A DNA stretch of 64,000 bases from an uncultured Verrucomicrobiota bacterium (GCA_902560705.1 CACEMW010000003.1:6125-70124), one strand, 5' to 3'; shown: positions 37,575 to 58,258, numbered from the stretch's first letter. Notes: a model not told the origin generated them from the sequence alone. Made by a program: numbers and translations.

Positions 37575-38545
37575 ATGACAACCGAGGCGCTGATTCTCAT
37601 CTATTGTGTGGCCATCCTCCTGGCTTCCCTGGCTGGGGGATGGATTCCTCTGATGGTGCGGCTGGCGCACACCCGGTTGGAAGTGGCATTGAGTTTTATT
37701 TCAGGACTGATGCTGGGGGTAGGGTTTCTCCATCTTTTGTCTCATGCCTTTTTCGAGCTTGGTTCCATCGATCGGGGTATTCACTGGCTCTTGGGAGGGT
37801 TTCTCTTCACCTTTTTGATCCAGCGCTTTTTCCTCCATCACATGCATGGGTTGCCGATGGATGCGGGTGCATCAGGTCAGGAGGGTAGCATCCATGCTTC
37901 TCACGACTGTGGTGGGCATGACCATGCCCATCTTCACTCCGGCGACAGTGGTGAAGGGCATGGGATTGGCAAGCGCTGGTCGTGGTTGGGGGCGGGTCTT
38001 GGGCTGACCCTTCATACCTTGATCAATGGCATGGTTCTGGCGGCCAGTATTAAGAGCGAAGTTCAGCCTCAAGAGGCGGTTGCCTGGGCTGTTTTGGTAC
38101 TTTCCTGGTCATAATGTTTCATAAACCTTTCGATGCCTGCACCATTGGAACCTTTATGTCCACGGGAGGCTGGTCGCGTGGGCAGCGTCATCTGGTCAAT
38201 GCAGGCTTTGCATTGATTATTCCGTTGGGGGTCGCTCTTTTCATAATGGGCTTTCATTCAGTGGCCGATAGCAACCACCAGTGGATCGGGTGCGCCCTGG
38301 CCTTTGCAGCGGGTACTTTTCTTTGCATTGCCTCCATTGATCTTCTGCCCGAGTTGCAATTTCACAAGCACGACCGTCTCAAACTCAGCGCGGCGCTGGC
38401 TCTGGGAATCGCCCTGGCAGTGGTCATTGGGAAGTTTGAATCCAGCGGCCATGATCACCACCACGATACGGGAGAATCCTCTTCCACAGAAGTTCCACAG
38501 AAGAGACGCATCATGGGCATGACCACGCCCACTAGAGAGCCTTGA
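37575..38545 (+). pseudogene. ZIP-family metal transporter interrupted by a frameshift (or split into two ORFs)
   Basis: ORF 37575-38114 holds TM1-4, a His-rich loop (HHMHG...HASHDCGGHDHAHLH) and the TM4 motif LHTLINGM. TM5 with its HK-P-D motif (GGCLGCFGTFLVIMFHKPFDA) and TM6-8 continue in the -1 frame, which is open from 38054 to 38545. The two ORFs meet in a TAATG overlap at 38112-38116. Confidence 0.7.
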
Positions 38546-39402: not shown

Positions 39403-39518
39403 GCGAGCCCGGATCGGCTTTCCACCTGTCTGCAGATCTTTTAATGCATTCGGTATGTCCATTGATCGGGGGGATTTTCATTGCGATTCAAGGGCTTTCG
39501 TGACATAAAACTCTATTG

Positions 39519-40784
39519 ATGTTACCCCGACTCGCCATGCGCGTATTGCGCTCGACCGATCCCAAGGCCTTGTGGAAATTCTCCTGGCTTTTCGGGTTCA
39601 AAGGCATGCTTTCGGTGCAACGTTTCAAGCGAAGGGCCCAGCAAGGCGTCTATTTCCCACCATTTCTTTACCTGAGTATCCTCAACAGCTGCAATCTGCG
39701 TTGTCAGGGGTGCTGGGTGGATGTGGAATCGCCACGAGAAAGCATTGAACTGGAGCGGCTTCATCGCCTTATCAATGAGGCCAAGTCCCACGGCAACAGT
39801 TTTTTCGGGCTTCTGGGCGGCGAACCCTTCATGCACCCCCAGCTGCTGGACTTGGTGGAGCAGCAATCCGATGCCTATTTTCAGATTTTTACCAACGGTC
39901 AGTTGATCACCGACAAGGTGGCCGATCGTCTGCGGCGCGCCGGCAATGCCACCCCGCTGATCAGTATCGAAGGCCGGGAAGTGGTGAGTGATCAGCGGCG
40001 AGGAAAAAAAGACGTTTTTGCCCGCACCTTGCGAGGGCTCGATACCGCTATCCGCCATCGCCTTCTGACAGGTGTGGCCACCAGTGTGTGTCAGTCGAAC
40101 ATTCGGGATCTCCTGAACGAATCTTGGATCGATGAGCTTATTGACCGGGGGGTCCATTATGTCTGGTTTCACTCCTACCGCCCTGTCGGGCCCATGATGC
40201 ACGAAGACCTTGGACTTTCTCGTGAGCAACTGGTTGAGACCCGTCAATTCATTACGGAAATGCGTGCCAAGAAGCCTATTGGAATCGTGGATGCCTACTA
40301 TGATCATGATGGCCAGGCCCTTTGCCCCATGGCCACGGGGATCAGTCACCATGTCAATCCCAAGGGAGGGGTGGAACCCTGCCCCATCATTCAATTTGCC
40401 AATGAGTCGATCGATGATGATCGGGGTATCTACCGTACCCTGACCGAGTCTTCTTTTCTGAAGGATTTCCGAGAGACCACGGCCCGCGAAACCCGTGGCT
40501 GTGTGATGCTGGAACGGCCCGATCTGGTCGAAGACCTTGTCAAAAAGCATGCGGCCGGGGATGGCACCATTCGACAAACGGCCATGCAGGAGCTGCAGGC
40601 CATGAAACCTCGCCACAGCCAATGGCTTCCGGGAGACGAGATCCCCGAAAAGCATTGGATGTATCGGTGGGCCAAACGATTTTTTTACACCGACTTCGGC
40701 GCCTACGACCGATTGGAAAAGGTGAAACCTCTGAGTGACACAGTCGGTCAAGATGAGAAACCACAATCAACCCTCCATTCCTGA
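39519..40784 (+). CDS. Radical SAM enzyme (HpnH-like layout, no obvious SPASM tail)
   Basis: CNLRCQGC (Cx3Cx2C) preceded by FPPFLYLSILNS. GGEPF glycine-rich SAM motif. A distal cysteine pair (ALCPMATG...VEPCPII). The ATG at 39519 is preferred over the TTG at 39516. Confidence 0.85.
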   Translation: MLPRLAMRVLRSTDPKALWKFSWLFGFKGMLSVQRFKRRAQQGVYFPPFLYLSILNSCNLRCQGCWVDVESPRESIELERLHRLINEAKSHGNSFFGLLGGEPFMHPQLLDLVEQQSDAYFQIFTNGQLITDKVADRLRRAGNATPLISIEGREVVSDQRRGKKDVFARTLRGLDTAIRHRLLTGVATSVCQSNIRDLLNESWIDELIDRGVHYVWFHSYRPVGPMMHEDLGLSREQLVETRQFITEMRAKKPIGIVDAYYDHDGQALCPMATGISHHVNPKGGVEPCPIIQFANESIDDDRGIYRTLTESSFLKDFRETTARETRGCVMLERPDLVEDLVKKHAAGDGTIRQTAMQELQAMKPRHSQWLPGDEIPEKHWMYRWAKRFFYTDFGAYDRLEKVKPLSDTVGQDEKPQSTLHS

Positions 40785-40813: not shown

Positions 40814-42559
40814 ATGGAATTCACTGGCCAGACCGTGATGGGAGAGACCACTCTCAAGTTGCCCAAACTAACACCGCCTGCACGTTTCAGGCCTCCCAAG
40901 AGCAACTTGCCCCAGACGCCGGAAGAACGGTCGGAGATCCTGCAGCAGGTCCGTGCTTACATTGCCGAGCACCAGCCGGTGCCTCCCATGCCCATGGAAG
41001 ACATCAAGGTGCACGCCGACCGTCTGGTGGCCTCACTGGGCTGTGATCCGGTGTATCGCGATTTCATTGGCGTTCTGATGAACAACGAGATGTGGCGCGA
41101 TTCCCTAGCTGCCATCCCCTATGAGCGTCGACTCTTGCTGTTACCCAAATGCCTTCGTGTGGAAAGCAAGTGCCCGGCCCCATTCGATGAGTTTGGTCTT
41201 CTCTGCAAGCAGTGTGGATTGTGTTCGATTCAGGATCTTCAAAATGAAGCCGAGCGTTTGGGCTATGCCGTGTTGGTGGCCGAGGGGTCGGCGATTGTGA
41301 TGTCCCTGATCCAGACCGGAAAGATCGAAGCCATCGTCGGGGTCAGCTGTCTTAGCGTTCTGGAGCGCGCCTTTCCCTACATGGAGGCCGCTGCGGTGCC
41401 GGGCGTCGCCATCCCCCTGCTGCAGGATGATTGCATCGACACCACTGTCGATCTGGATTGGATCTGGGATTACATCCATCTGACCAGCGCGGATAAAAGC
41501 CTGCGATTGGATCTGGGAGCCCTTCGGGAGGAGGTTGATTTTTGTTTTTCCCCGACCTCCATGGCATTGATCATGGGTGAAGTCAAGGGACAAACCGAGG
41601 AACTGGCGCGCGAATGGCTGATGCGGGCCGGTAAGCGATGGCGTCCTTTCCTCACCGCCTCGGTGGTGCAGTCTTTGGTGGAAACATCGCAGGACGGATG
41701 GTCGGAGGATCTCAAACGCATCTGCGTGGCGGTGGAATGTTTCCACAAGGCCTCGCTGATTCATGATGACATCGAAGATGAAGACGATCAGCGTTACGGC
41801 GAACAGACCCTGCATGCCTCCCACGGGGTGGCCGTCGCTCTCAATGTCGGGGACCTTCTGGTGGGAGAGGGGTATCGACTGATCGCTGCGACCGGGCTTT
41901 CTCCGGAGCAAAAAGCTGCGATGCTTCAAGTGGCTGCCGAAGGGCATCGCCAGCTATGCCGCGGACAGGGAGCGGAGCTTTGCTGGATGCGGGATCCACA
42001 CCCCATGAAACCAGTAGAAGTGCTGGAAATTTTTCGGAGCAAGACTGCGCCAGCATTTGAAGTGGCACTTCAGATGGGGGCGATCTTTGCAGGGCTGGAT
42101 CTGCACGAAGGGGTGCGAGGCACCCTGCATGCCTATAGTGAGGCGCTGGGTATTGCCTATCAGATCCGGGATGATCTCTCCGATCACGGTGTGGGAGGTG
42201 AGACCAACGACCTGGAACAAATTCGCCCCAATCTGCCTCTGGCCGTGGCTCACGAAAAAGCCAAGGGACCCGATCGCGACGCCCTGGAGACGGCCTGGAA
42301 ACGGCAGCTCAATGGCACGGTTTCCCATCAGGATGTTGAACGCCTTTGCCGCGAGCTCAAGGCATTGGACCGATCCGAACGCCTGCTGGAGGCCTACAAG
42401 GAGGAAGCCATCCGATCGATTGCTCAGCTCGACAACCCCAGCCTGAAGGGTCTGCTTCGCCGCATGATTGGTAAGATCTTCAACGATGCTGAAATCAAGG
42501 GGTGGTGTAGTGAGGTTCATGGTGCAGGCGGCGATCAGCTTTTTGCGGAGGCTCCGTAG
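40814..42559 (+). CDS. Fusion of a DUF116-like Cys-rich domain and a trans-prenyl diphosphate synthase
   Basis: N-terminal half: RRLLLLPKCLRVESKCPAPFDEFGLLCKQCGLCSIQDL...GYAVLVAEGSAIV (DUF116 pattern). C-terminal half: FARM LIHDDIEDEDDQRYG and SARM YQIRDDLSD. Confidence 0.75.
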   Translation: MEFTGQTVMGETTLKLPKLTPPARFRPPKSNLPQTPEERSEILQQVRAYIAEHQPVPPMPMEDIKVHADRLVASLGCDPVYRDFIGVLMNNEMWRDSLAAIPYERRLLLLPKCLRVESKCPAPFDEFGLLCKQCGLCSIQDLQNEAERLGYAVLVAEGSAIVMSLIQTGKIEAIVGVSCLSVLERAFPYMEAAAVPGVAIPLLQDDCIDTTVDLDWIWDYIHLTSADKSLRLDLGALREEVDFCFSPTSMALIMGEVKGQTEELAREWLMRAGKRWRPFLTASVVQSLVETSQDGWSEDLKRICVAVECFHKASLIHDDIEDEDDQRYGEQTLHASHGVAVALNVGDLLVGEGYRLIAATGLSPEQKAAMLQVAAEGHRQLCRGQGAELCWMRDPHPMKPVEVLEIFRSKTAPAFEVALQMGAIFAGLDLHEGVRGTLHAYSEALGIAYQIRDDLSDHGVGGETNDLEQIRPNLPLAVAHEKAKGPDRDALETAWKRQLNGTVSHQDVERLCRELKALDRSERLLEAYKEEAIRSIAQLDNPSLKGLLRRMIGKIFNDAEIKGWCSEVHGAGGDQLFAEAP

Positions 42560-42581: not shown

Positions 42582-43883
42582 ATGCCCATGGATTTGTCCC
42601 GGACTTCTCGAATATCTCAGATATCTCGAATTGCTCGGAGGGGATGGTCGCTTACCTTCCTTCAGGCCGGCTGCTGGATGGTGGGGGCATTGCTGGTGTT
42701 TTTGAGCCCCAGGGGCCATTCCCTCCTGGCCCAACCTCAAGCTTCTGCCTTGCCGCCTTCGCCGGTGGTTTTCTCCCGCACCGAGAAGCTGGATCCGCCC
42801 ATCACATGCGTCCCGCTAGCGGAGGGCCTGTCTTGGGATCGCCCCGTGTGGATGACGCCCATCCCCGGGCATGAGGGCCAGTGGGTGGTATTGGAGCACC
42901 GTAGTGGCAAGGCCTGGCGTCTGAATCTCGCCGATCAAGCCGCGCCCCTCAAGAGCCTCTTTGGTGACTTTAGTGCTGCCGTCAGTGACGGACCTTGGGA
43001 AGGCTTGATGTGTCTGGCCTTTCATCCGGAGTTTTCCACCAACCGACGCTACTTCCTCAAACATGAGACCTTGAGGCAAGAGCAGCGGTGGACCGTCCTC
43101 CGGGAACACCGGGCCAGTCAGGATGGCTTGCGGGATTCTGGCCAATCGCCCCGAGAACTTTGTGCGATGGCACAGCCTGCAGACAACCACAATGGTGGGA
43201 CGCTCGCCTTTGGCCCGGACGGCATGCTCTACTTTGCCATGGGGGATGGGGGGCCGCAGGAAGACCCTGAGGGTCACTCCCAGAATTTGAACAGCTGGTT
43301 GGGGAAGATGCACCGCTTGGATGTGGATCATGTAGAGCCTGGGATGGCCTATGGGATCCCCCCTGACAATCCACATGCGGGCAGTCAGGATCCACACCTG
43401 CGCCGGGAGATCTTTGCTGTAGGCCTGAGGGAGCCCTGGCGCTTTTCCTTCGATCGACTCACGGGCGATTGCTGGGTAGGGGACGTGGGACAGGGGAAGT
43501 ATGAGGAGGTGACGGTGGTCGGCCGGGGAGAAAACCATGGGTGGAACGTTTACGAAGGATTTGAATCTTTTTCGGAGCAATACCGCCAGCCCGATCATCG
43601 CTACACCTGGCCGGTCTTTGTTTACGGTCGTCGTCTGGGAAACTCAATTACCGGAGGTTATGTCTACCGGGGAGATGTCCACTCTGACTACTACGGGGCT
43701 TATATTTGCGGGGACTACACCACGCGTCGGCTCTGGGCTTTGTGGACAGAAGAAGGTCGCCTGCAGAAGGTGCTCCAAATCGCAGTATCTCCCTCGCCGG
43801 TGGCCTCCTTTGCCGAGGCACTCGACGGGAGTCTTTGCCTCGTGGGGTATGATGGAAAGCTTTACCGGCTGGCCTTGCCCTGA
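42582..43883 (+). CDS. PQQ-dependent sugar dehydrogenase-type (sGDH/sorbosone dehydrogenase) beta-propeller protein
   Basis: HNGGTLAFGPDGMLYFAMGDGG, GLREPWRFSFD, VGDVGQGKYEEV, NHGWNVYEG and ITGGYVYRG. N-terminal signal anchor. The start is taken at 42582. Confidence 0.85.
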   Translation: MPMDLSRTSRISQISRIARRGWSLTFLQAGCWMVGALLVFLSPRGHSLLAQPQASALPPSPVVFSRTEKLDPPITCVPLAEGLSWDRPVWMTPIPGHEGQWVVLEHRSGKAWRLNLADQAAPLKSLFGDFSAAVSDGPWEGLMCLAFHPEFSTNRRYFLKHETLRQEQRWTVLREHRASQDGLRDSGQSPRELCAMAQPADNHNGGTLAFGPDGMLYFAMGDGGPQEDPEGHSQNLNSWLGKMHRLDVDHVEPGMAYGIPPDNPHAGSQDPHLRREIFAVGLREPWRFSFDRLTGDCWVGDVGQGKYEEVTVVGRGENHGWNVYEGFESFSEQYRQPDHRYTWPVFVYGRRLGNSITGGYVYRGDVHSDYYGAYICGDYTTRRLWALWTEEGRLQKVLQIAVSPSPVASFAEALDGSLCLVGYDGKLYRLALP

Positions 43884-43921
43884 GGCTCTCTTGAAACTGG
43901 TAAGCGACCAAGGAATGGTTT

Positions 43922-45742
43922 TCAGCGAATGCCGCTTGCCTCCAGTTCCCGAATCTCCGCTTCCCACTTTGTTCGCTCAGTTTCAGAGACTTCCGGGTCG
44001 CGCAGTAAACTGCGCCGGCTGCAGTGCACCAGAGCCTGCAATGTCTGGTAGTGCCGGGTGGTTGCAATGGCGGCAGGCAGGTGGTCGTGCACCACTTCCA
44101 GAATGGCATCCATCTCCAGCGCCTCAGCCTTGCGCAGCAGTTGTCGCGCCTTGAGCTCCGAACGCAGGGAAGCCATTGCCGCAGCAGACAGATCCCCGAT
44201 TTCTGTGAGCAGATGCTCCAGCTCATCGGGTTTGAGCTTGCGCCCCAATACCGGCTGGATCACCCATTCCAGAAAGGCTTGGCGATCTTCGTTCTCCGGA
44301 TCGAGCACCGGGATGATGAGATCTCCCACGCGGCCAGGGCGACGCAAGTCGGGCGAGAGCTGGTGAATACGTGCGGTGATCAGCAGCCAGAATACCCTGC
44401 CTCTCAGGCGTGGGTCGGACATCATGGCCTGGATCTTGCCGGTGAGACGACGTTCGGTTTCGTGTGCATTCGGGCCAATGGCGCCGAACTGTGTGTCAGC
44501 CTCATCCACAAAAATCAGCACCTTGGAAAGGGCTTCCAGAACGCGTCGAAGTCGCTCGAAAATGACATCGGTTTGACCAAACCACTGACTCCGCAGGTTC
44601 TTTAGCACTAGCACCACCATGTCCATTTCGGTAGCGACGGCTTCAAAGATGAAGGTTTTGCCGCTACCGATCGGGCCACAAACCGCGGCCCCGGGCAGTG
44701 AAGCCTTGCCACCCATCTTGAAGCGTGGGATGAGCTCCTGGTTGAGGAAACCCTTGAGCTTGGTAAAGCCCACCACGTCCTTGAGACGATGTTCGGGTTT
44801 CTTGAATTCCACCACTGAATCCCCCAGCTGGCTTTGAATGAAGGACTCCACCTTGGCCACTACATCGACAGGCTGGAGCTTTTCCTTCCCATGGATGGCC
44901 CCTTTGAGGAGTTGCAGCAGGGCCTGCAGCGAGAGCCCTGCGGTCAAGGCTGCCAGCTGGCTTTGACTGCTCCAGAGCTTGAGTTCCTCACCATGGCTCA
45001 AGTGGCGGTTGAACCAGGAGATGAAGTGCTTGCGGATAGCTTCATCGGGTGAAGGAATTTCGCTCTCCAGCAAGTAAGGCAATTTGGCGATGCGGTGGTG
45101 GATCTGACTGCGCGATTCAGCCAGAAGGATCACCGCATCTCCGGAACGAAGGAAGTCCTGATCACTGAACCAATCCTGACAAATGGTCACGCGCCGGCGG
45201 TCCATGTCTCCCATCTGAGCGATGGGTGCTTCCGGTAGGATCAGGTCGGCTCCCTCAATTAGAATCAACAGATTGGCTTTCAGGCTGGGCTTGGAACCTT
45301 GTCGGGAACGCGAGCAGAGACACATCTGGCGGAGCATTTCCAACGCCAGGGTAGGATTGCCAATGGCTTCCTGCAAGTGGCGCTCAAAGCTCTCGGCGAT
45401 GGCTTTTTCGTCATCCACTGCGCCTTTATGAAGCATCCGCTGGATAGCCATCTGTTCGTTGTTCAGTCCGCTGCGCCAGCCTACCCAGGCCTTTTTCATG
45501 GCCTCGCGGTGCGAGGGATGCAGGAAGCGAATGGGGCCATTGAGTTCATAGACCAACAGCATGAAGTTGGGTAGATCCCAATGATGCAGCAAGAAAGGAA
45601 GCAGCGAGACGTAGTCCTCTTCATCCTCTTTTTTCTGATAGAAGAGGTCGTGAATGTTTCCGGTCAACAACACCGTGCGGGTCTGGCCGGCATTGAGCAT
45701 CCGGCCGGCGGCCTTGAGAAAAGGGGGGGCTTGCTGACTCAT
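43922..45742 (-). CDS. Classical-clade AAA ATPase with a degenerate N-terminal AAA-like domain
   Basis: C-terminal module: Walker A GPIGSGKT, Walker B LIFVDEAD, second region of homology ARIHQLSPDLRRPGRVGDLI. N-terminal module: TRTVLLTGNIHD and LLILIEGADLILPE in place of the Walker motifs. ATGA overlap with the upstream ABC ATPase gene. Confidence 0.85.
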   Translation of the reverse strand: MSQQAPPFLKAAGRMLNAGQTRTVLLTGNIHDLFYQKKEDEEDYVSLLPFLLHHWDLPNFMLLVYELNGPIRFLHPSHREAMKKAWVGWRSGLNNEQMAIQRMLHKGAVDDEKAIAESFERHLQEAIGNPTLALEMLRQMCLCSRSRQGSKPSLKANLLILIEGADLILPEAPIAQMGDMDRRRVTICQDWFSDQDFLRSGDAVILLAESRSQIHHRIAKLPYLLESEIPSPDEAIRKHFISWFNRHLSHGEELKLWSSQSQLAALTAGLSLQALLQLLKGAIHGKEKLQPVDVVAKVESFIQSQLGDSVVEFKKPEHRLKDVVGFTKLKGFLNQELIPRFKMGGKASLPGAAVCGPIGSGKTFIFEAVATEMDMVVLVLKNLRSQWFGQTDVIFERLRRVLEALSKVLIFVDEADTQFGAIGPNAHETERRLTGKIQAMMSDPRLRGRVFWLLITARIHQLSPDLRRPGRVGDLIIPVLDPENEDRQAFLEWVIQPVLGRKLKPDELEHLLTEIGDLSAAAMASLRSELKARQLLRKAEALEMDAILEVVHDHLPAAIATTRHYQTLQALVHCSRRSLLRDPEVSETERTKWEAEIRELEASGIR

Positions 45743-46701
45743 GCTTCAGGGTGGGTGTTGCTGTCGGGAGCGATGCGTGGCTGAAGGTGGTTGGGGTGAA
45801 ACACCTCCTGTCGCACTGCCGCACGCTGGTGTTCGAAGATTTCAAAATCCCGCACACTGTGGGGCTCGAAGATGGGGGTAGGCTGATCATACACGATGGA
45901 AGCCCCGGGATGGGCGCTGTGTCCTTCGGCCTTCCAATCCCAATACTGGGACAAGCCGATCAGGCGATCCCCGACATAGATCGCCTCGTTCAGCTCATGG
46001 GTGACGATGATGAGCGTGTAATCGGGTAGCTGTCCTGCTGCCTTGGCTTGCTGGTTTTCTTCATAGAGCTCAAGCAAGGCTTTCTGAAGCTCTTCACGCG
46101 TGGCTTCATCCAGGGCTCCGAACGGCTCATCCAGCAGGATGATTTCGGGCTTCATCACCAGCGCCTGCGCGATGGCCACGCGCTGGCGCATGCCACCCGA
46201 CATTTCATGGGGGTAGAGGTGCATGGCATCCTTGAGCTTGACCCGCTCCAGCATTGCAGCAGCTTCTTCCAGATGCCCCTTGCGACTCCTCTTCCAGTGC
46301 CCCCATCGGAAAAGCCGGTCCGCCAGAGTGGTCTGGTCCAGTTTCAAGCCGATGGCGACATTTTCGAGGGCAGTGAGAAACGGGAAAAGTGAATAGTGCT
46401 GATAGACAATGCCACGATCCCGCCCGGGTCCTTGGACCGGTGAGGGTGGGATGGAGGCTTCCTTGGCGTGGACCTGCACCACGCCTTCGTTGGGTAGATG
46501 GGTACCGACAATCGCACGGAGCAGGGTGGATTTGCCGCATCCGCTGGGGCCTACCAGACTGACAAACTGCCCGCGCTGGATGGTGAGGTGAATGTCATGC
46601 AGCACCCGCTTGGATCCAAACCAATGGGAAAGGGATCGGCATTCCAGAGCGATATGTGGTTGAGAAGCTACAGTCGTCATGGGGGCATCAGTGTTGGGCA
46701 T
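45739..46701 (-). CDS. ABC transporter ATP-binding protein, NitT/TauT (nitrate/sulfonate/bicarbonate) type, with a C-terminal extension
   Basis: Walker A GPSGCGKST, signature MSGGMRQRVAIA, Walker B IILLDEPFGALD, and about 70 extra C-terminal residues. An alternative start at 46680 is possible. Confidence 0.9.
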   Translation of the reverse strand: MPNTDAPMTTVASQPHIALECRSLSHWFGSKRVLHDIHLTIQRGQFVSLVGPSGCGKSTLLRAIVGTHLPNEGVVQVHAKEASIPPSPVQGPGRDRGIVYQHYSLFPFLTALENVAIGLKLDQTTLADRLFRWGHWKRSRKGHLEEAAAMLERVKLKDAMHLYPHEMSGGMRQRVAIAQALVMKPEIILLDEPFGALDEATREELQKALLELYEENQQAKAAGQLPDYTLIIVTHELNEAIYVGDRLIGLSQYWDWKAEGHSAHPGASIVYDQPTPIFEPHSVRDFEIFEHQRAAVRQEVFHPNHLQPRIAPDSNTHPEA

Positions 46702-47491
46702 CGAACCAGGGAGCGATTTTCTTTTGAAGTGCGTTGAGTAGACTGTCCATCAGAAAGCCGAAACCAGCCAGCAAGGCCAGGTAAGGATATACGACCCCCA
46801 TGTTCAGCAACTTGGATTGGATCCGGATTCGGTAGCCAAAGCCGACATCCCCAAAGAGCATTTCAGCCGCAATCAGGTAGACCATCGCCGGCCCGATCAT
46901 CAGTCGAGTGGCCTCCAGTAACTTGGGCAGCACGTAAGGAAAAATGACATTGCACACGACCTCCATGTGCGAGGCTCCCAGAGTGTAGGCCTTGTATTGC
47001 AGCTCATCGGGAAAGGCCTTGACCGATTGATAGACGGTGATGGCCATGCTGGGCAGGATACCAAAGACAATCATGGTGAAGTACATTTTCATCCCCAAGC
47101 CCACCAGGGCCATGAACACGGCAATGACGGCGGTTGCCGGTACTTTTGCCAGAAAGGAAAGAGGAGGGGCCAAAAAGGCCTCCACCGACTGGGAACAACC
47201 CATGGCAATCCCAAGGACGCATGAGCCGACTACTGCCAACCCCAGACCGGCAAACAGGCGGGTAAGGGTGGCCCTAGCATCATCGGTGAGCCAGCGATCC
47301 TCCAACCGTTCATTCCACTGAATGGACCGCTGAACCCCTTCGCTGAGCTGCGACCAGTTGGGGATGGTGGTATCCTTGGGGTTTTTCTGGTGCTGGCGGT
47401 AGGAGAGCCAGCTGTAGCCGGCCAACATCAATGCGACTGACAAGAGCCCCAGAATGATTCGGGTGGTAGAAGCAATCGGTCGACGAATCAT
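46688..47491 (-). CDS. ABC transporter permease, NitT/TauT type
   Basis: 267 aa with six predicted TM helices and a binding-protein-dependent transport inner-membrane component layout. It overlaps the downstream ATPase gene. Confidence 0.8.
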   Translation of the reverse strand: MIRRPIASTTRIILGLLSVALMLAGYSWLSYRQHQKNPKDTTIPNWSQLSEGVQRSIQWNERLEDRWLTDDARATLTRLFAGLGLAVVGSCVLGIAMGCSQSVEAFLAPPLSFLAKVPATAVIAVFMALVGLGMKMYFTMIVFGILPSMAITVYQSVKAFPDELQYKAYTLGASHMEVVCNVIFPYVLPKLLEATRLMIGPAMVYLIAAEMLFGDVGFGYRIRIQSKLLNMGVVYPYLALLAGFGFLMDSLLNALQKKIAPWFDAQH

Positions 47492-47731
47492 GGAGGCTTT
47501 TTAACCGCAGGCCCCAAACGTTGGCCATGATAAAAAAGCACTCATTTTCTCATGGTCCAGACAAGATGGCTTGAAAGGGTCCTTTTCCGAGGGTCGCAGC
47601 CGATGGATTGCAAAGGACTTTTTTTCAACAGATAGTCGGTGACCAAAAGCTACATTGTGGGCCCCACGAGGGGTGCTCCACTCCCCATATAGGAAGGTTT
47701 CCTTCTTGATGCCGTTGCAGGCTGAGGCAGC

Positions 47732-48934
47732 ATGGAGGGCATGCATTCATCCAAGAGCCTGCCTCGATCCCGGCGTCGCTTTCTCTCTGCATGTGGGAGG
47801 GTGGCTGGGACTGCTGCTTTCATGCATGCCTTGCCTGCCATGCCGGCCCTTCGGCTGCGGGCGGCGGCGCCTGTCATTCGGGTGCACGAGCTTCGCACCA
47901 TCAGTCACGCCCCAGATCGTTATCATGGGTGGCCGACCCTGTCGCGCTCTCAACAAGGAGATCTGCTGCTGGCCTGGTCGGGAGGGCGCGAAGATCATGT
48001 CTGCCCTTTTGGTCAGGTGCAGTTCATGCGCTCTTCTGACGGAGGGGAGACCTGGTGTTGGCCTCGAGTGATCCTGGACAGCGGTCTGGATGACCGCGAT
48101 GCCGGTATTCTGGAGACGCCCTCGGGGACTTTGCTCGCAACCACCTTCACTTCTATGGCCTACCAGCCCATTCTGGAACGTGCGCGAAAGGAGGGGCGCT
48201 GGGATCCGTCTCGCCTCCAGCGCTGGGAGGCGGCGCATGCACGCCTCGATGCCGCATCTCGGCAAAGCCAGCTGGGGCAGTGGATCCTGCGTTCGGAGGA
48301 TGGTGGGCTCAACTGGTCGGCCAAGACGCCTTCAGTCGTCAATAGCCCCCACGGCCCCATCGCGCTGTCCAATGGACGGTTGCTCTATGCCGGCAAGGAG
48401 CTTTGGACAGGTCAGCGACGGATCGGAGTGGCGTTTTCTGAGGATGATGGACGCAGCTGGCAATGGGCAGCCGAGATCCCTGCTCGCGAGGGAGACGATC
48501 CCGCCGAGTATCATGAATTGCATGCCGTTGAGATGCCCGACCGCAGGGTGGTGGTGCACATCCGCAATCACAACCCGCTTCATGCGGGAGAGACCCTTCA
48601 ATGCGAATCGACCGATGGGGGGCTGAGCTGGACCAAGCCACGATCGGTGGGTGTCTGGGGGCTGCCCTCTCATCTGCTTCGCCTGGCCGATGGCCGTGCC
48701 CTGATGACTTATGGGCATCGAAGGCTCCCTTTCGGCAATCAGGCTCGGCTCAGTGAGGATGGGCGATCTTGGTCGGCACCGATGAGTCTTTCCACCGATG
48801 GGGCCTCGGGCGACCTGGGCTATCCCAGCACCGCGCAGCTGATCGATGGTTCGCTGGTCAGTGTGTGGTACGAACGGCTGGCGAATCGTCCCAAGGCGGT
48901 GCTGCGCCAGGCTCGGTGGTCGCTGGAGTCCTGA
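47732..48934 (+). CDS. Tat-signal BNR/Asp-box beta-propeller hydrolase (sialidase-like)
   Basis: SRRRFLSACGRVAGTAAFMHA twin-arginine signal. Asp-boxes SSDGGETWCW, SEDGGLNWS, SEDDGRSWQW, STDGGLSWTK and SEDGRSWS. Confidence 0.7.
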   Translation: MEGMHSSKSLPRSRRRFLSACGRVAGTAAFMHALPAMPALRLRAAAPVIRVHELRTISHAPDRYHGWPTLSRSQQGDLLLAWSGGREDHVCPFGQVQFMRSSDGGETWCWPRVILDSGLDDRDAGILETPSGTLLATTFTSMAYQPILERARKEGRWDPSRLQRWEAAHARLDAASRQSQLGQWILRSEDGGLNWSAKTPSVVNSPHGPIALSNGRLLYAGKELWTGQRRIGVAFSEDDGRSWQWAAEIPAREGDDPAEYHELHAVEMPDRRVVVHIRNHNPLHAGETLQCESTDGGLSWTKPRSVGVWGLPSHLLRLADGRALMTYGHRRLPFGNQARLSEDGRSWSAPMSLSTDGASGDLGYPSTAQLIDGSLVSVWYERLANRPKAVLRQARWSLES

Positions 48935-52285: not shown

Positions 52286-55200
52286 ATGACCGACATGATA
52301 CGCCTGTGGATGGGTTCCTGCTTGATCGTCACTCAATGCCTGCTGGGAGCAGTCACTCCTTGGGTAGAAGGACTGCCCGCCCTCACGGAGGCCGAAGTCC
52401 TTTTTGCCCGAGGTGCCTACCAGCGCTCCCTGGAAGCCTATCAGGGCATCGATGTGAAGGATGAGGCCCTGACGGCCCAACAACAGCGATGGATTCTTTT
52501 TCGTCGATTGGACAGCCAGTGGCGTTCCTTCAGTGCCACTCAACAACCCGATCAAGGGCCTTTGATGAAGGTGGGACGGTCGTTGCAGCGCATGGTGGAC
52601 GATCGCGACGCTTCTCAGGGCGTCGATGCCATGGAGGCCGCCTTGTTGGAATCTCTGGGAGACTTCTGGTGGACTTCCCGCAATCGCCGTCAATGGAATC
52701 AGGCCTGGTCGGCTTATCAGCGTGCCTTGGATTTCTGGGCTGGTTCGTCGGAGTTGGAGGTCGCTAGGGATCGCTTTCTGAACATTCTTTGGAAAGCTTC
52801 GGCGGTGCCGCAGGCGAGGCCCTATGAAATGTATGGCAGTGCCGGAAACTATCTTCCGGTGGATGTCCTTGAGCAGGCCACCCGCATTACCCAAACTCCG
52901 GAGGATCGTTCGCACGCCTACTATCTTCTGGCTCGGTCTCTTCAACAGCGCTGGGGGGTGCAGGCACGCTCTTACGAACGCATCCTGCGAGCCTTCGAGA
53001 GGGCAACCGATAACTCGATCAAGCATGCATGGTTGGATGATGCCTTGGCTCAGCAGGCCCAGTGGCTGGGATCGCAGGGTCGGGCCGAGCAGCGAGACGA
53101 TGGACAGTGGTCCTTCCTGCCTGATTACCCGGCCGCGCTCAAGGTGTGGCGTCGGCTGCTTGATCTCTATGACAAGGAGGAAACACGCTATCATGCAAGC
53201 GCCACTCGGAGCGTGGAGGAGATTCTCAAGGTGCGAGCCGACCTGGCGGTGGATCACGCGTTCAAGCCTGATTCCAGAATTCGACTGCGCGTTCGCTGGC
53301 GCAACATCGAGTCCTTCCAGCTCAAGATTTATGCCATGGACCTGGTCCAAGACCTGGCTTTGACCGACAAGGGCCAGTTGGGTTCCTACCAGTGGATACG
53401 CTCGGTTGAGACGCCCAGCCAGGAGCCACTCTTTCAAGAAGCGGTGGAGACGGAGGATCTGGGACGACACGATCCCGGGCATAAGGAATGGGTGCTCAAG
53501 GAATCCTTGCCCGAGGGGGCCTATCTGGCCATCGCTTCGAGTGGCGGGAAAGAGCTGAGCCGCGAATGGATTCTGGTCAGCAATCTGATGGTGACCGCCA
53601 GAGCCTCCTCTAACCGCATGTTGGTGTGGGTCTGCGATGCGCGCGATGGCCGACCGATCCCTCACGCCACGGTGCGGCTGTGGCAGCAGACCCGACGAGG
53701 CCGCGAGCAGCAATGGATTTCGTTTGATCGCCAAAGCGATGCCGAGGGTCTGGTGGTGATGGAATCCGAACGGGCCGATGGCTCATCCTGGCTGATCACC
53801 GTGTCCAAGGATGACGGACAGAACCTGACCATGCTCCACCATCCGGGGAACCGTCGTGGCCAGCAAGATCCGTGGAAGGTATATGCCTTCTCCGATCGTC
53901 CGGCCTATCGCCCGGAGGAAACGGTGTATTGGAAGGCCATCGTGCGCCAGCGAGACGAAAGTGGTTACATCACCCCTGCTCAGGCTGATCTCAAATGCCG
54001 TATTGTGGACCCGCTCGGGGCCACGGTGTTCGAGTCACAAGTCACTCTCAATGCCTTCGGTTCGCTGCATGGGCAGTGGGAAATTGCCAGTGATACCCCT
54101 CTGGGGATGTATCGACTTGAACTGAAGGATAAGGATGATCAATGGGTTGCCAACCATACCCTTTTCCGTGTTGAGGAGTACAAGCTTCCCGAGATGAAGC
54201 TCTCCCTTGACTGGCCCGACCTGGAGGAGGGTCAGACACCCGAAGTGCCGCGTCCGGGAGATTCTGTAAGTCTGGATCTCCAGGCTTCCTACTATTTTGG
54301 TGGCCCCGTGATCGATGCTCAGGTGCAGGTCAGGGTGTATCGTCGGCCCTACCAGATGATTTCCCCAATGCCCCGCCCCTATCCATGGATGAAGGTGGCC
54401 GATGCTCAGGGGCGCATGATGCCTGGTCGGCAGCCCGAGAGCCTGGACAAGGAATGGTCGGTCAAGACCGATGCCCAAGGGCGAGCCCTCATCACCTTTG
54501 ATTCCAGCGATGATCTGTCGAAGGACATGAGTTATCGCGTCGAAGTGCGCGTGAGCGATGCTTCTCGTCGAGAGGTTGTGGCTCAAAAGGAAGTGCGGGT
54601 TTCACGACAGGGACACTTTGCCCACATCGTCGGGGATCATCGCGTGATCGAGCCTTCTCAGAAGGTGGTGTTCGACATCCGCATTCAAGATATTCAGGAG
54701 CGACCCCTTTCTCGTGAAGGGCAGATCAAGGTCCTTCGCAAGCAATGGCGTGAAATCTGGATCTCCCCCGAAGGTTTGGAAGTCGAGCGTCCGGGCCTGG
54801 GTGCGGATGCGGGCCAGTGGAAGGACTTCCCTCCGCAGCCCGAACGCCCCGACCAGCGTCCCTGGCAATTCAAGGAACGTGGTTATGAGAGCGAGGTGGT
54901 GAGTGATCAAGTGCTCAGCAGTGATGCTTCGGGAAAAGCCATCTTTGTCTTCACCCCCACCGAACGGGGTTACTACACCTTGTTGTGGACAAGTCAGGAT
55001 CAGCGACCCGGAGCCCCCCCCGGACCGGGTGCCGAAGTGCGTGCGGAATGTGACCTGTGGGTGGGTAGGCCTGAGGATCAGGACTTGGGTTATCACTCTC
55101 AAGGATTGGAAATCATTCTCGACAAGGAGACCTTTCAGGTGGGGCAGACCGCGCCTGTGTTATTGAGTGTCCCGACGAGTGATCGTTGGGTGCTCTTGAC

Positions 55201-58200
55201 CCTGGGTGCCGAGCAATTGCTGGAGCATCGGGTGATTCACGTCCCCGGAGGGGTTCGCATGGTTCCCTTGGAGATCAACGCTACGCACGTTCCCAATGTG
55301 TTTGTTCAGGCATGGAGTGTCAGCGATCACAAGGTTTATCAGGATCAGGAGTCGGTCACTGTGCCGCCCACCCATGCCTTTCTGGAGGTTGCCGTTGAGG
55401 CAGATCAGGAAGCCTACGCCCCCCGTCAGGAGGCAGAGGTGACGATCCAGGTGCGCGATCACGCGGGTCAGCCCGTGAAGGGTGAGCTGGCTCTGGCGGT
55501 GTATGATGAGTCGGTGACGGCCATCCAATCGGATCTTGCTGGGGATCCAAGGGAAACCTTCTATGGGCAAATGCGCTCCCTCATTGCTTCGCAGGGGGGA
55601 TTAGCGCGGTCCTTTGTGAAATGGTTGGAGGTGGAGGACAAGGGCCTCATGACGGAGGATCAATGGCGGCGTTACCGAGAACTTGGGCTTTCCTCGCCCG
55701 CCGATACGCTGTTGGAGGAGGATTCGAATCTGGCCATGGCCGATTTCAGCAGTCGCGGCTATGCTGGTGGAGCTGCACCTGAGTCGATGATGGCGCTCGC
55801 CGACGCGGCCCCGATGCAGGCTCGGATGATGAAAGGGGCTCCCGTGGCTGGCATGGCCATGGAGATGGATGCTGCGATGCCGGCCGCAGCACCCGCAGGA
55901 GGCGCCGCAGAGGTCGAAATGATCGTGCGCCAGGACATGCGGGCGACTGCCTTTTGGGAGCCTGCCTTGCAGACGGATCAGAATGGTGAGGCCCGACTCA
56001 AGGTTTCGCTGCCAGATACCCTGACTACCTGGAAGTTTGACGCACGCTGCCACGACCAGGACACACGCGTGGGCCGAGCCGAGGCCACGGCCCTGACCCG
56101 TCAGCCGCTGATGGTTCGCCTGCAGACTCCGAGGTTTCTGGTGGTGGGAGATCGAGCCACCCTTTCAGCAGTGGTGCACAATGAGACCGAGGAGGGGGTG
56201 GAGGCGTCGGTGGCCCTCGAGGTACTTTCTGGAAATCTGTCCGGTTGGACCGAAGAGGCTGATCGAAAGGTTCAGATCCCCGCTCAAGGAAAGGTGCGGG
56301 TTGATTGGAGCGATGTGCGGGTCGGCCAGCCCGGTAATGTTCGTCTGCAGGCCTCCGCACGAAGCCATAGTCATGCCGATGCCATGGTGGTGGACCTGGT
56401 GGCGCATGAGCATGGCTTGATGCAGCGTCTGGTGGCTTCTAGCCAAGGCAAGGCCTCTTCACTGGAGCTTTCCTTGAACCTGCCAGAGCAGCGCAGGGCA
56501 GGGAGCACCGAGCTTGAGATCCGGTTGACCCCCAGCCTGGCGGTCTCCATGCTCGATGCCCTGCCATACCTCATCGACTACCCCTACGGATGCACCGAGC
56601 AGACCCTGAGCCGTTTTGTGCCAGCCATGATCGTGCGTCGTACTCTGGAAGATCTGGGCGTTCGGGCTGAGGATGTGGCCGCGCGATCTTTGGGTGGGAT
56701 CGATCCTCAGCAGATGGAGGCGACCCATCGTTCAGGACATGTAGGATGGGATGAAATGGATGCGGTGACCCAGGCTTCCCTTGAGCGTCTGACTGATTTC
56801 CAGCACGCCGATGGCGGGTGGGCTTGGTGGAAGGAAGGTGCTTCCGACATTTTCATGTCTGCTTATGCGGTCTGGGCCCTGAGCTTGGCTCAGGATGCTC
56901 AAGTAGACTTGCCTGAAAACATGTTGCGCCGAGGAAGGGATTTTCTCGCCGCTCGTCTGGTGCAGGCGGAAAATCGCCCGGATCTGCAGGTGTGGATGCT
57001 CCATGCCATCCATGCCGCAGGTCGTGAAGACCTCAGCCCTAAGGGAAAGGAGGCCACGCGCAAGGCCTGGGAGCAGCTTTGGAGAGAGAAAGACACCCTC
57101 AATGCCTATAGCCGAGCCTTGTTGACGCTGGTGGCTCATCATGTTGGCCTGAAGAAGGAGGCCAAGCTCTTGGTGCAACAATTGGAAAATGGCGTGATTC
57201 GGCGAGAGCAGGGGGCAGGATCGGTGCTCGCATCCGGAATCAGGTCAGGAGATTCCGAACCGACCGCTCACTGGGGAGAGGATGGCCTGTTTCGTCACTG
57301 GTCCGATGGTGGTATCGAGGCCACTGCCATGGCCTTGAGGGCCTTGCTGGCCGTGGATCCGGACAATGAACTGGTGGCTCCCGTTGTGCGATGGTTGATT
57401 CAAAACCGACGTGGTGCGCATTGGTCCAATACCCGGGATACGGCCATGGTCCTTTTTGCTCTTACTGACTACCTCAAGCAAAGCGGGGAGCTGGAGGCCA
57501 CCATGCGCTATGAGCTTTATTTCAATGGGGTGCTTCTGGCAACCGAGTCACTGACTCCTGAAAACTGGCTGAAGGCTCCGAGTCGATTCCGAGTGCCGAG
57601 TGCAAGCATTGCGGATCAAAACCTCATCAAGGTCATCCGTGTCGAAGGGGAGGGCACCCTTTATCTGAGCGCCGATGCTTCTTGGTTCAGCACTGAGGAG
57701 CCGGTTTCCGCGGTGGGTAATGAATTGTTCGTACGCAGGGACTACGCTCGCTTGAAGGAAATCCCGACGCTGCTCAAGGGGAGGGTTCTTGCGCGTGAGC
57801 CACTGGCCGATGGGGACTCGCTGGCCAGCGGGGAGCGCGTCGAGGTCATCCTGACCCTCGATGCCTCCAACCATCAATCCTACCTGATGATCGAGGATCT
57901 AAAGCCTGCCGGTTTGGAAGCGGTGGAGGTCCAAAGCGGTGCATCGATCCGGGCGCGAAGACTTTCCCAGAGAGCTGTGGATCGACTCCTTTGGGAGAGC
58001 TTTCCTTCCGATCCGGCCGCGTCTGGGTGGCGATGGTCTGGGCAACAGCAACCCTTGCATCAGGAGTGGCGCGACCGACAAGTCGCTCTGTTTGTCGATG
58101 AACTTCCCGAGGGGGTTTGGGAAATCCGTTACACGCTGCGAGCCGAGGCCCTCGGTGCATTCCACGCATTGCCAGCGGTCGGGCAAGCCATGTACATCCC

Positions 58201-58258
58201 TCAGATCCGCGGGAACAGCCATGAGAAGCGGTTCAAGGTGATCGAAGCCCTGGAGTAG
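52286..58258 (+). CDS. Bacterial alpha-2-macroglobulin family protein (1990 aa) with an intact thioester motif
   Basis: Signal peptide, TPR-like N-terminal region and repeated MG-type beta-sandwich segments. Met/Ala-rich linker MMALADAAPMQARMMKGAPVAGMAMEMDAAMPAAAPAGG. Thioester YPYGCTEQTLSRF. A2M_comp-like region. Confidence 0.9.
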   Translation: MTDMIRLWMGSCLIVTQCLLGAVTPWVEGLPALTEAEVLFARGAYQRSLEAYQGIDVKDEALTAQQQRWILFRRLDSQWRSFSATQQPDQGPLMKVGRSLQRMVDDRDASQGVDAMEAALLESLGDFWWTSRNRRQWNQAWSAYQRALDFWAGSSELEVARDRFLNILWKASAVPQARPYEMYGSAGNYLPVDVLEQATRITQTPEDRSHAYYLLARSLQQRWGVQARSYERILRAFERATDNSIKHAWLDDALAQQAQWLGSQGRAEQRDDGQWSFLPDYPAALKVWRRLLDLYDKEETRYHASATRSVEEILKVRADLAVDHAFKPDSRIRLRVRWRNIESFQLKIYAMDLVQDLALTDKGQLGSYQWIRSVETPSQEPLFQEAVETEDLGRHDPGHKEWVLKESLPEGAYLAIASSGGKELSREWILVSNLMVTARASSNRMLVWVCDARDGRPIPHATVRLWQQTRRGREQQWISFDRQSDAEGLVVMESERADGSSWLITVSKDDGQNLTMLHHPGNRRGQQDPWKVYAFSDRPAYRPEETVYWKAIVRQRDESGYITPAQADLKCRIVDPLGATVFESQVTLNAFGSLHGQWEIASDTPLGMYRLELKDKDDQWVANHTLFRVEEYKLPEMKLSLDWPDLEEGQTPEVPRPGDSVSLDLQASYYFGGPVIDAQVQVRVYRRPYQMISPMPRPYPWMKVADAQGRMMPGRQPESLDKEWSVKTDAQGRALITFDSSDDLSKDMSYRVEVRVSDASRREVVAQKEVRVSRQGHFAHIVGDHRVIEPSQKVVFDIRIQDIQERPLSREGQIKVLRKQWREIWISPEGLEVERPGLGADAGQWKDFPPQPERPDQRPWQFKERGYESEVVSDQVLSSDASGKAIFVFTPTERGYYTLLWTSQDQRPGAPPGPGAEVRAECDLWVGRPEDQDLGYHSQGLEIILDKETFQVGQTAPVLLSVPTSDRWVLLTLGAEQLLEHRVIHVPGGVRMVPLEINATHVPNVFVQAWSVSDHKVYQDQESVTVPPTHAFLEVAVEADQEAYAPRQEAEVTIQVRDHAGQPVKGELALAVYDESVTAIQSDLAGDPRETFYGQMRSLIASQGGLARSFVKWLEVEDKGLMTEDQWRRYRELGLSSPADTLLEEDSNLAMADFSSRGYAGGAAPESMMALADAAPMQARMMKGAPVAGMAMEMDAAMPAAAPAGGAAEVEMIVRQDMRATAFWEPALQTDQNGEARLKVSLPDTLTTWKFDARCHDQDTRVGRAEATALTRQPLMVRLQTPRFLVVGDRATLSAVVHNETEEGVEASVALEVLSGNLSGWTEEADRKVQIPAQGKVRVDWSDVRVGQPGNVRLQASARSHSHADAMVVDLVAHEHGLMQRLVASSQGKASSLELSLNLPEQRRAGSTELEIRLTPSLAVSMLDALPYLIDYPYGCTEQTLSRFVPAMIVRRTLEDLGVRAEDVAARSLGGIDPQQMEATHRSGHVGWDEMDAVTQASLERLTDFQHADGGWAWWKEGASDIFMSAYAVWALSLAQDAQVDLPENMLRRGRDFLAARLVQAENRPDLQVWMLHAIHAAGREDLSPKGKEATRKAWEQLWREKDTLNAYSRALLTLVAHHVGLKKEAKLLVQQLENGVIRREQGAGSVLASGIRSGDSEPTAHWGEDGLFRHWSDGGIEATAMALRALLAVDPDNELVAPVVRWLIQNRRGAHWSNTRDTAMVLFALTDYLKQSGELEATMRYELYFNGVLLATESLTPENWLKAPSRFRVPSASIADQNLIKVIRVEGEGTLYLSADASWFSTEEPVSAVGNELFVRRDYARLKEIPTLLKGRVLAREPLADGDSLASGERVEVILTLDASNHQSYLMIEDLKPAGLEAVEVQSGASIRARRLSQRAVDRLLWESFPSDPAASGWRWSGQQQPLHQEWRDRQVALFVDELPEGVWEIRYTLRAEALGAFHALPAVGQAMYIPQIRGNSHEKRFKVIEALE

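Follow-up and report, generated by a model that had tools for sequence, protein, structure and literature searches.

What does an AAA ATPase do at the end of an ATP-binding cassette (ABC) transporter operon, and where is the binding protein of that transporter? The question is raised by three overlapping genes on the minus strand of a stretch of DNA of 64,000 nucleotides (GCA_902560705.1, CACEMW010000003.1:6125-70124) from an uncultured Verrucomicrobiota bacterium. This whole stretch is called the window, and positions are counted from its first letter. The genes encode an ABC permease, an ABC ATPase, and an AAA ATPase with two tandem AAA domains, and they are referred to here as the triad. 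An earlier reading of the DNA alone, the original prediction, took the triad for a transporter pair of the NitT/TauT type with no binding protein, hard-wired to a remodelling ATPase. Our analysis gave another answer. The three genes in the window have become detached from a larger system, and the triad is the ATP-using tail of a conserved envelope cluster of eight to nine genes, not a stand-alone system.

The cluster was recovered from relatives. Relatives of the AAA protein were sought in one genome per species; 546 stretches that encode one were confirmed, and the best 80 loci (numbered L001 onwards) were analysed; all locus counts below refer to these best 80 of the 546 stretches. The genes of the cluster were defined by clustering the open reading frames (ORFs) of the loci, by family scans, and by sequence inspection. 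The full cluster begins with c9, a periplasmic vWA protein with a signal peptide and a C-terminal membrane anchor, followed by c7, one or two membrane-anchored proteins that combine an NMT1-type binding-protein domain with an OmpA peptidoglycan-binding domain. The third gene encodes c6, a two-helix membrane protein whose coiled coil is cytoplasmic, and the fourth encodes c4, a PspA/IM30-like coiled-coil protein of about 276 amino acids (aa). The fifth product is an NMT1/SsuA-type (NitT/TauT-type) solute-binding lipoprotein, and the permease, the ABC ATPase, and the tandem AAA ATPase follow as genes six to eight. An extra conserved gene, located upstream of the vWA gene (L081:4571-6445, L085:3653-5458, and L095:14489-16210), encodes a protein of 570-625 aa with an NMT1 binding-protein-like domain, and the L095 copy has a weak OmpA match. 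The full cluster can hold three binding-protein-like paralogues, two of them fused to OmpA domains and membrane anchors.

The permease, ABC, and AAA genes were collinear in about 60 of the 80 loci, across several phyla and at 53-79% protein identity, and the three proteins co-varied at similar identity levels. The order was kept at L095, where the AAA protein is 31% identical. The survey of permease-ATPase-AAA co-occurrence proposed in the original prediction was run in this way; it showed that the synteny holds across several phyla and that the AAA-ABC linkage is indeed hard-wired. The linkage far exceeds chance, and it is real and ancient. The carriers were labelled Verrucomicrobiota, Hydrogenedentota, Sumerlaeota, Acidobacteriota, Nitrospiraceae, Desulfobacterales, Phycisphaerae, and others. 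The locus L001, equivalent to the window, comes from a marine Pedosphaera-like Verrucomicrobiota metagenome-assembled genome (MAG) with an AAA protein 98% identical. Two full-cluster loci, L068 and L072, belong to MAGs that carry the labels Bathyarchaeia and Bifidobacteriaceae; such hosts are unexpected, and binning errors are possible.

The synteny bears directly on the simplest alternative, an ordinary sulfonate-, nitrate-, or urea-type importer that stands beside an unrelated AAA gene by chance. The permease and the ATPase do have family-level similarity to TauBC, SsuBC, and NtrBCD. However, the genes are collinear and overlapping or abutting across phyla, down to 31% AAA identity, and no curated equivalog cut-off was reached. 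Chance neighbourhood is contradicted by the survey and is highly improbable.

The transporter genes are not the most general partners of the AAA gene. The full cluster was found in 46-47 of the 80 loci, and the triad alone in five (L001, L002, L005, L009, and L054). In 11-13 loci, c4 immediately precedes the AAA gene, and the flanking 7 kb or so on each side contain neither a permease nor an ABC gene. One locus holds the AAA gene alone, and the remaining loci are too short to judge. The c4 and AAA genes occur in the same locus in about 58-60 of the roughly 66 informative loci. The distant locus L097 (AAA member P0272, of the class with about 35% identity) has the AAA gene right after a PspA-like gene, as a pair without a transporter. 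At L095, permease-ABC-AAA converges on a second sub-operon that encodes a binding protein, two coiled-coil proteins, an OmpA-domain protein, a vWA protein, and an NMT1/OmpA protein, and the gene set is that of the full cluster. At L096, a further distant AAA relative, no linked partner genes were found. The pair of PspA-like protein and AAA ATPase therefore forms the general core. To this core, the ABC and periplasmic genes were often, and anciently, added as an extension, in which permease-ABC-AAA behaves as one sub-operon. The claim that the AAA protein is tied primarily to the transporter does not agree with the ABC-free loci and L097, in which its most general partner is the PspA/IM30-like protein; most likely, a PspA-like protein is also its primary partner.

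The system in the window is already known computationally, and the earlier statement that it is not a described system has to be withdrawn. Ravi, Anantharaman, Aravind, and Gennaro (mSystems 2024, PMC11237479; preprint 2020) reported that PspA co-occurs with a protein of two AAA+ domains of which the N-terminal one is inactive. They described dyads of PspA with an 'Inactive-Classical-AAA+Classical-AAA' protein, also without transporters, and longer operons in which genes for an ABC ATPase, a permease, a PBPB+OmpA protein, and a TM+Snf7 protein are also present. One example is OGG56892.1 from Candidatus Handelsmanbacteria, with the order PspA, PBPB-OmpA, permease, ABC, TM-Snf7, AAA. These authors proposed ATP-dependent membrane remodelling linked to solute transport (PMC11237479).

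How the window came to hold only the triad can be read from its clade, in which the cluster is split. No binding-protein gene adjoins the triad, and a tblastn search with the binding protein of relatives found none in the 64-kb window. The related complete genome CP170459.1 (6.08 Mb) carries the triad (L009) at about 4.20 Mb. A second locus (L081) at about 4.97 Mb holds the NMT1-like, vWA, OmpA-domain, c6, c4, and binding-protein genes; the distal binding-protein gene that had been suggested as a target of search was therefore found, about 770 kb from the orphan triad. With the distal half present in CP170459.1, the 'missing' binding protein of the window is best explained by a distal locus, and we infer from this relative that the missing half lies elsewhere in the genome of the window as well. 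In the closer relatives L004, L006, and L007, both halves stand together with a sulfatase gene inserted between them; in L004 it lies between the binding-protein and permease genes. Other marine populations, reached via the close c4 homologue P0287, show the same split, with the c4 half followed by unrelated genes. The homologue P0287 did not lead to the c4 locus of the window's own genome.

A trace of the former arrangement may be preserved beside the permease. The BNR_2 (sialidase-like) gene of the window (47732-48934, plus strand; Pfam BNR_2) is divergent from the permease gene and lies outside the system. It is 66% identical to the BNR_2 gene at L081:18132-19301 (minus strand), about 6 kb downstream of the binding-protein gene. 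This similarity suggests that the shared BNR_2 gene is a remnant of former contiguity and that a once contiguous region was split by rearrangement. The gene for the binding lipoprotein stands immediately upstream of the permease gene in 46-47 of the 80 relatives, and this dedicated NMT1/SsuA-type protein speaks against the description 'binding-protein-less'. The case carries a lesson for annotation: an orphan ABC pair of this kind is a detached part of a larger system, not a nutrient importer without a binding protein.

Judged by its sequence, c4 is a divergent PspA/IM30 protein of the ESCRT-III superfamily. The comparison used a Vipp1 alignment built from database proteins, for which the starting query is 97% identical to Synechocystis Vipp1. 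In hhalign, c4 matched this alignment with P values of 2.5e-4 to 5.8e-4 over 154-177 collinear columns; the controls with reversed sequences gave P values of 0.02-0.04 over 18-27 columns. The Pfam profile PspA_IM30 (PF04012) was weakly matched by 12 of 20 c4 members, over most of the profile. The Vipp1 alignment and the distant loci gave the stronger evidence. The AAA partner at L097 has 248 aa and is a near-canonical PspA with a full-length PspA_IM30 match (E 2e-7), and the c4 profile aligned with it at a probability of 97.9% (hhalign, E 3e-13, 212 columns). The PspA-like neighbour of a second distant AAA relative aligned to the c4 profile at a probability of 84%. Additionally, a homologue 76% identical to the query c4 (L004) bears the NCBI name 'PspA/IM30 family protein'. 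The AlphaFold2 model of c4 combines an N-terminal helix with a long helical hairpin and additional helices, an ESCRT-III-like layout. No match was obtained with hhalign between c4 and E. coli PspA, nor between c4 and c6. In hmmsearch against PDB sequences, the c4 and c6 profiles found only chance coiled-coil matches, and tblastn of c4 against plasmids gave no match.

The c4 orthologues (e.g., L028:3216-4058 and L081:10001-10831) share one further feature. In all of them, the C-terminus is an invariant Leu-Pro-Glu, preceded by a linker of about 25 residues that is variable and of low complexity. The distant PspA-like partners at L095, L097, and L098 do not have this end. The Leu-Pro-Glu tail is a candidate recognition tail.

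The three genes of the window were confirmed as ORFs, and their coordinates and both overlaps are as originally predicted. The permease (46688-47491, minus strand; 267 aa) has a type I importer fold, is NitT/TauT-like, and matched Pfam BPD_transp_1 (E 2e-15). The ABC ATPase (45739-46701, minus strand; 320 aa) matched Pfam ABC_tran (E 5e-33), and the tandem AAA ATPase (43922-45742, minus strand; 606 aa) matched Pfam AAA (E 1e-15). The ABC ATPase gene shares its first 14 nt, from the ATG on, with the end of the permease gene, and the ATG of the AAA gene and the ABC stop codon overlap in the sequence ATGA. Upstream of the permease, the divergent intergenic region of 240 bp (47492-47731) also stood as predicted, and it is the presumed promoter region of the three-gene unit. 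A scan of 43600-48000 for the sigma-70 consensus, uninformative for this phylum, showed no promoter-like site, and a terminator scan of the same interval gave terminator-like sites only at chance level. Metatranscriptome contigs cover parts of the AAA gene (43990-44234 and 44431-44648) and of the ABC gene (45791-46308), and one contig of 91 nt spans the ABC/AAA junction.

The AAA protein consists of two unequal tiers. Residues 1 to about 340 (44723-45742, minus strand) form an inactive AAA-like first domain (D1) with a helical lid, as judged by the model and the motifs. Residues from about 341 to 606 (43922-44722, minus strand) form an active classical-clade AAA domain (D2) with a conserved C-terminal helical extension, as judged by Pfam and the motifs. 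The Pfam AAA match is limited to residues 354-473, and residues 1 to about 340 have no Pfam or NCBIfam match. In a comparison of 16 homologues, the D2 motifs GPIGSGKT, IFVDEAD, the pore loop WFG, and the second region of homology RRPGRVGD were invariant or nearly so. The D1 equivalents are LLTGNIHD at Walker A, with no lysine, and LILIEGAD at Walker B, and their degeneracy is conserved. In each of the 16 homologues, D1 lacks the Walker A lysine and the Walker B acidic pair, and D2 has both intact. The AlphaFold2 model has a mean pLDDT of 74 and of about 85 in the N-terminal half, where strands and helices alternate, and its alignment with the D1-D2 tandem of p97/Cdc48, Rix7, NVL, and Pex1/6 spans about 650 columns. 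The AAA-like fold and the degenerate D1 motifs therefore sustain the earlier description of a tandem protein with a degenerate first and a canonical second module, as do the homologues and the Pfam match. In phmmer searches of the PDB, the active domain matched Cdc48/p97 at E 2e-24 and Vps4 at E 4.5e-10. Against NCBIfam, the protein reached 52.9 bits with CDC48 (TIGR01243; cut-off 802.65) and 35 bits with CdvC (cut-off 650).

What the cluster does can be proposed by analogy with Vps4 acting on ESCRT-III. The AAA protein would form a hexamer, in which the dead first domain could serve as an assembly or partner-binding tier. The active second domain, with its aromatic pore loop and double arginine finger, would pull on the PspA-like polymers at the inner membrane and disassemble or recycle them. 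The ABC importer would take up or sense a small solute delivered by the NMT1-type binding protein, and the peptidoglycan-tethered and vWA proteins would link the machine to the cell wall. Membrane remodelling or repair would thereby be tied to a periplasmic or cell-wall cue. We consider this mechanism, as a whole, reasonably probable; within it, the action of the AAA protein on c4 is a point that we infer from the analogy.

The main competing explanation is the one contained in the original prediction, namely that the AAA protein services the ABC transporter itself, by assembling, regulating, extracting, or recycling the permease/ATPase complex, with the PspA-like and other genes as accessories. 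It draws on the ATGA overlap of the ABC and AAA genes, on the ABC-then-AAA order kept in about 60 loci, and on the co-variation in identity of the three proteins. The behaviour of split clusters also speaks for it: the AAA gene stays with the permease and ABC genes, and c4 with the binding-protein gene (window, L009/L081, and L095). No AAA unfoldase is known that specifically serves a type I ABC importer, which counts against this explanation. The 11-13 loci with c4-AAA and no ABC gene within about 7 kb belong to the same orthologous group, the distant L097 is a PspA-AAA pair only, and a published survey finds PspA-AAA dyads without transporters (PMC11237479). Service to the transporter is, on this balance, rather unlikely.

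A bolder combination of the two lines is possible, and we put it forward tentatively. The AAA-ABC pair remains intact when the cluster breaks, which hints at a docking of the AAA protein on the transporter. The AAA family could be the missing equivalent of Vps4 in bacteria, remodelling ESCRT-III polymers of the PspA type at the cost of ATP, and it may dock on a dedicated ABC transporter; the transporter, its peptidoglycan-tethered binding-protein-like partners, and the vWA protein might then signal to the remodeller the place and time of its action at the inner membrane. The Leu-Pro-Glu tail of c4 would be the handle of the AAA protein, analogous to the MIT-interacting motifs of ESCRT-III.

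Several observations weigh against polymer remodelling as the function of the cluster. The score of c4 against PF04012 is at most about 18 bits, with a gathering score of 33.9, and c4 has no significant PDB sequence match to PspA or Vipp1. A Foldseek search of the c4 model against the PDB returned nothing below E 0.005; SMC arms and Vipp1 were mixed among the top matches, so the fold search alone cannot place the long helical hairpin. No Snf7 or PspA signal was detected in c6, either with Pfam or with hhalign against Vipp1. The AAA protein contains no MIT domain, and its sequence is nearer to Cdc48/p97 than to Vps4. In the 64-kb window, tblastn found none of c4, c6, c7 (the OmpA-domain protein), c9 (the vWA protein), and the binding protein. 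Where the cluster is split, the AAA gene is found beside the ABC genes and apart from c4 (window, L002, L005, L009, L054, and L095), which fits a direct relationship between AAA protein and transporter at least as well. The transcript evidence is thin, and DNA carry-over could contribute to it. Finally, no experimental work on any member was found in the papers searched.

If the remodelling mechanism holds, its interest reaches beyond the window. The AAA family is widespread (263 representative clusters at E <= 1e-30), and its pairing with PspA-like genes reaches from close branches to distant ones; therefore, it is a concrete candidate for the missing bacterial activity that disassembles PspA/Vipp1 polymers. 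According to a 2025 review, bacteria appear to have no Vps4-like ATPase; the review also names PspF of Proteobacteria as an AAA+ protein functionally tied to PspA (PMC7619361). Through the attached ABC importer and the peptidoglycan-binding and vWA proteins, a periplasmic signal or solute would be coupled to the repair or remodelling of the membrane.

The transporter itself was compared with curated families. The best NCBIfam matches of the permease were SaoP, TauC, NtrB, and SsuC, all under the cut-off, and those of the ABC ATPase were PhnT2, NtrCD, SaoA, and TauB, at 160-174 bits and likewise under the cut-offs. These neighbours are of the nitrate, taurine, sulfonate, and Sao types, and all of them lie far short of the curated cut-offs; therefore, the pair is labelled NitT/TauT-like without assignment of a substrate. 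The NitT/TauT character that had been predicted is borne out by the BPD_transp_1 and ABC_tran matches and by the nearest Tau, Ssu, and Ntr subunits. The motifs of the ABC ATPase are canonical (Walker A GPSGCGKST, signature MSGGMRQR, Walker B ILLDEPFGALD, and H-loop VTHE). The free binding lipoprotein of relatives belongs to the NMT1/SsuA family, and its best match is the urea/sulfonate-type TIGR03427 (160 bits, cut-off 334). The ABC ATPase extends by about 60 aa (residues from about 255 to 320) past the ABC_tran match, and the tblastn alignments to relatives reach query residue 303-317, approximately. This extension could be a contact site for the AAA protein.

The same transporter data bear on another alternative, in which the ABC unit is not an importer but a periplasmic sensor or mechanical transmitter that, together with the peptidoglycan-tethered and vWA proteins, switches the machine of AAA and PspA-like proteins on at envelope damage. 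The binding-protein-like paralogues, up to three per cluster, with two fused to OmpA and membrane-anchored, would suit such a role, as would the signal peptide of the vWA protein and the failure of every transporter part to reach a substrate-specific curated cut-off. However, the permease has an ordinary type I importer fold, the ATPase motifs are fully canonical, and the free lipoprotein resembles urea/sulfonate-type binding proteins at the 160 bits just given. We regard a sensor without import as unlikely, and an importer that supplies or senses a solute for the remodelling machine is preferred.

The original prediction had also likened the AAA protein to the Ycf46-type AAA proteins of cyanobacteria and plastids, and with them had raised a role in inorganic-carbon use. 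If the AAA protein were a Ycf46 orthologue, the unit would serve inorganic-carbon or nitrogen uptake as in cyanobacteria. The apparently similar layout, an AAA ATPase with a non-canonical N-terminal half, and a label of JGI, 'SpoVK/Ycf46/Vps4 family', on some homologues favour this idea. The label is a broad umbrella name, that of COG0464, and not a call of orthology; the names of ten distant AAA relatives, checked for Ycf46, were umbrella labels or absent. Neither Pfam nor NCBIfam gave a Ycf46-specific match for the AAA protein, and no cyanobacterial locus was among the best 80 of the 546 stretches. Ycf46 has a length of about 500 aa, and the 150 best representative clusters contained no full-length match of about 500 aa, evidence that is weak because the list carries no names. 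Synechococcus elongatus carries ycf46 within an operon of three genes (Synpcc7942_0416-0418), and an interaction with KaiC is described for it. The gene neighbourhood is therefore different from that of the AAA gene here, and no carbon-concentrating, carbon-uptake, or nitrate-assimilation genes are linked to the triad or to the clusters of relatives. The proposed link with inorganic carbon found no support, and a Ycf46 orthologue is scarcely to be expected here.

An anti-phage defence reading was also considered. The PADLOC models gave only generic P-loop, ABC, and coiled-coil matches, so this reading was dropped.

Other genes of the window were noted in passing. A radical SAM gene (39516-40784, plus strand) is followed by a gene for a fusion of DUF116 and polyprenyl synthetase (40814-42559, plus strand), and this pair is kept beside the AAA locus in the Pedosphaera-like genomes L001, L004, L005, and L007. 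A gene of the ZIP-family metal transporters is split into two abutting ORFs (37575-38114 and 38114-38545, plus strand) that cover positions 4-211 and 213-322 of the Pfam Zip profile; the split (37575-38545) could reflect a frameshift, a pseudogene, or an assembly error. A bacterial alpha-2-macroglobulin of 1990 aa (52286-58258, plus strand) has MG, bait-region, thioester, and bMG10 domains.

Among known systems, the operons of Ravi et al. come closest. They share with the family described here the inactive and active classical AAA domains, PspA, a membrane coiled-coil protein, an ABC ATPase, a permease, and a binding-protein+OmpA protein with a signal peptide. Their AAA proteins were matched to the present family by their published description. 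The link proposed there between ATP-driven membrane remodelling and solute transport is also the one proposed here. The gene order differs, and the present family adds a vWA protein and a separate binding lipoprotein. In the window, unlike in those operons, only the permease, ABC, and AAA genes stand together, with no PspA-family gene.

The transporter resembles TauABC, SsuABC, and NrtABCD in its permease, its ATPase, and, in relatives, its NMT1/SsuA-type binding lipoprotein. It differs from them in that no equivalog cut-off was reached, in that the ABC genes stand beside an AAA gene in the loci fetched, and in the C-terminal extension of about 60 aa on the ATPase. The pairing of an AAA protein with a PspA-like protein recalls PspF and PspA; however, PspF is an NtrC-type enhancer-binding activator that is inhibited by PspA, whereas the AAA protein of the window is a tandem of the classical clade that has pore loops and lacks a DNA-binding domain.

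For the AAA protein, the best fold matches over both tiers were Cdc48/p97, NVL/Rix7, and Pex1/Pex6, and Cdc48/p97 also gave the best sequence matches of the active domain. In Pex1/Pex6, the first tier is inactive as well. Unlike Cdc48/p97, the protein described here has no N-terminal double-psi-barrel adaptor domain, its D1 is inactive, and its context is a bacterial envelope. With Vps4 (CdvC), it shares the classical AAA clade, the aromatic pore loop, the double arginine finger, and, in relatives only, an adjoining gene of the ESCRT-III superfamily. It differs from Vps4 in having no MIT domain, in having two tiers of which the first is dead as against one, in a partner that is PspA-like as against Snf7-like, and in its linkage to an ABC importer and peptidoglycan-binding proteins. 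By this analogy, the ATP-driven disassembly of membrane-bound polymers is likely the activity that the two have in common.

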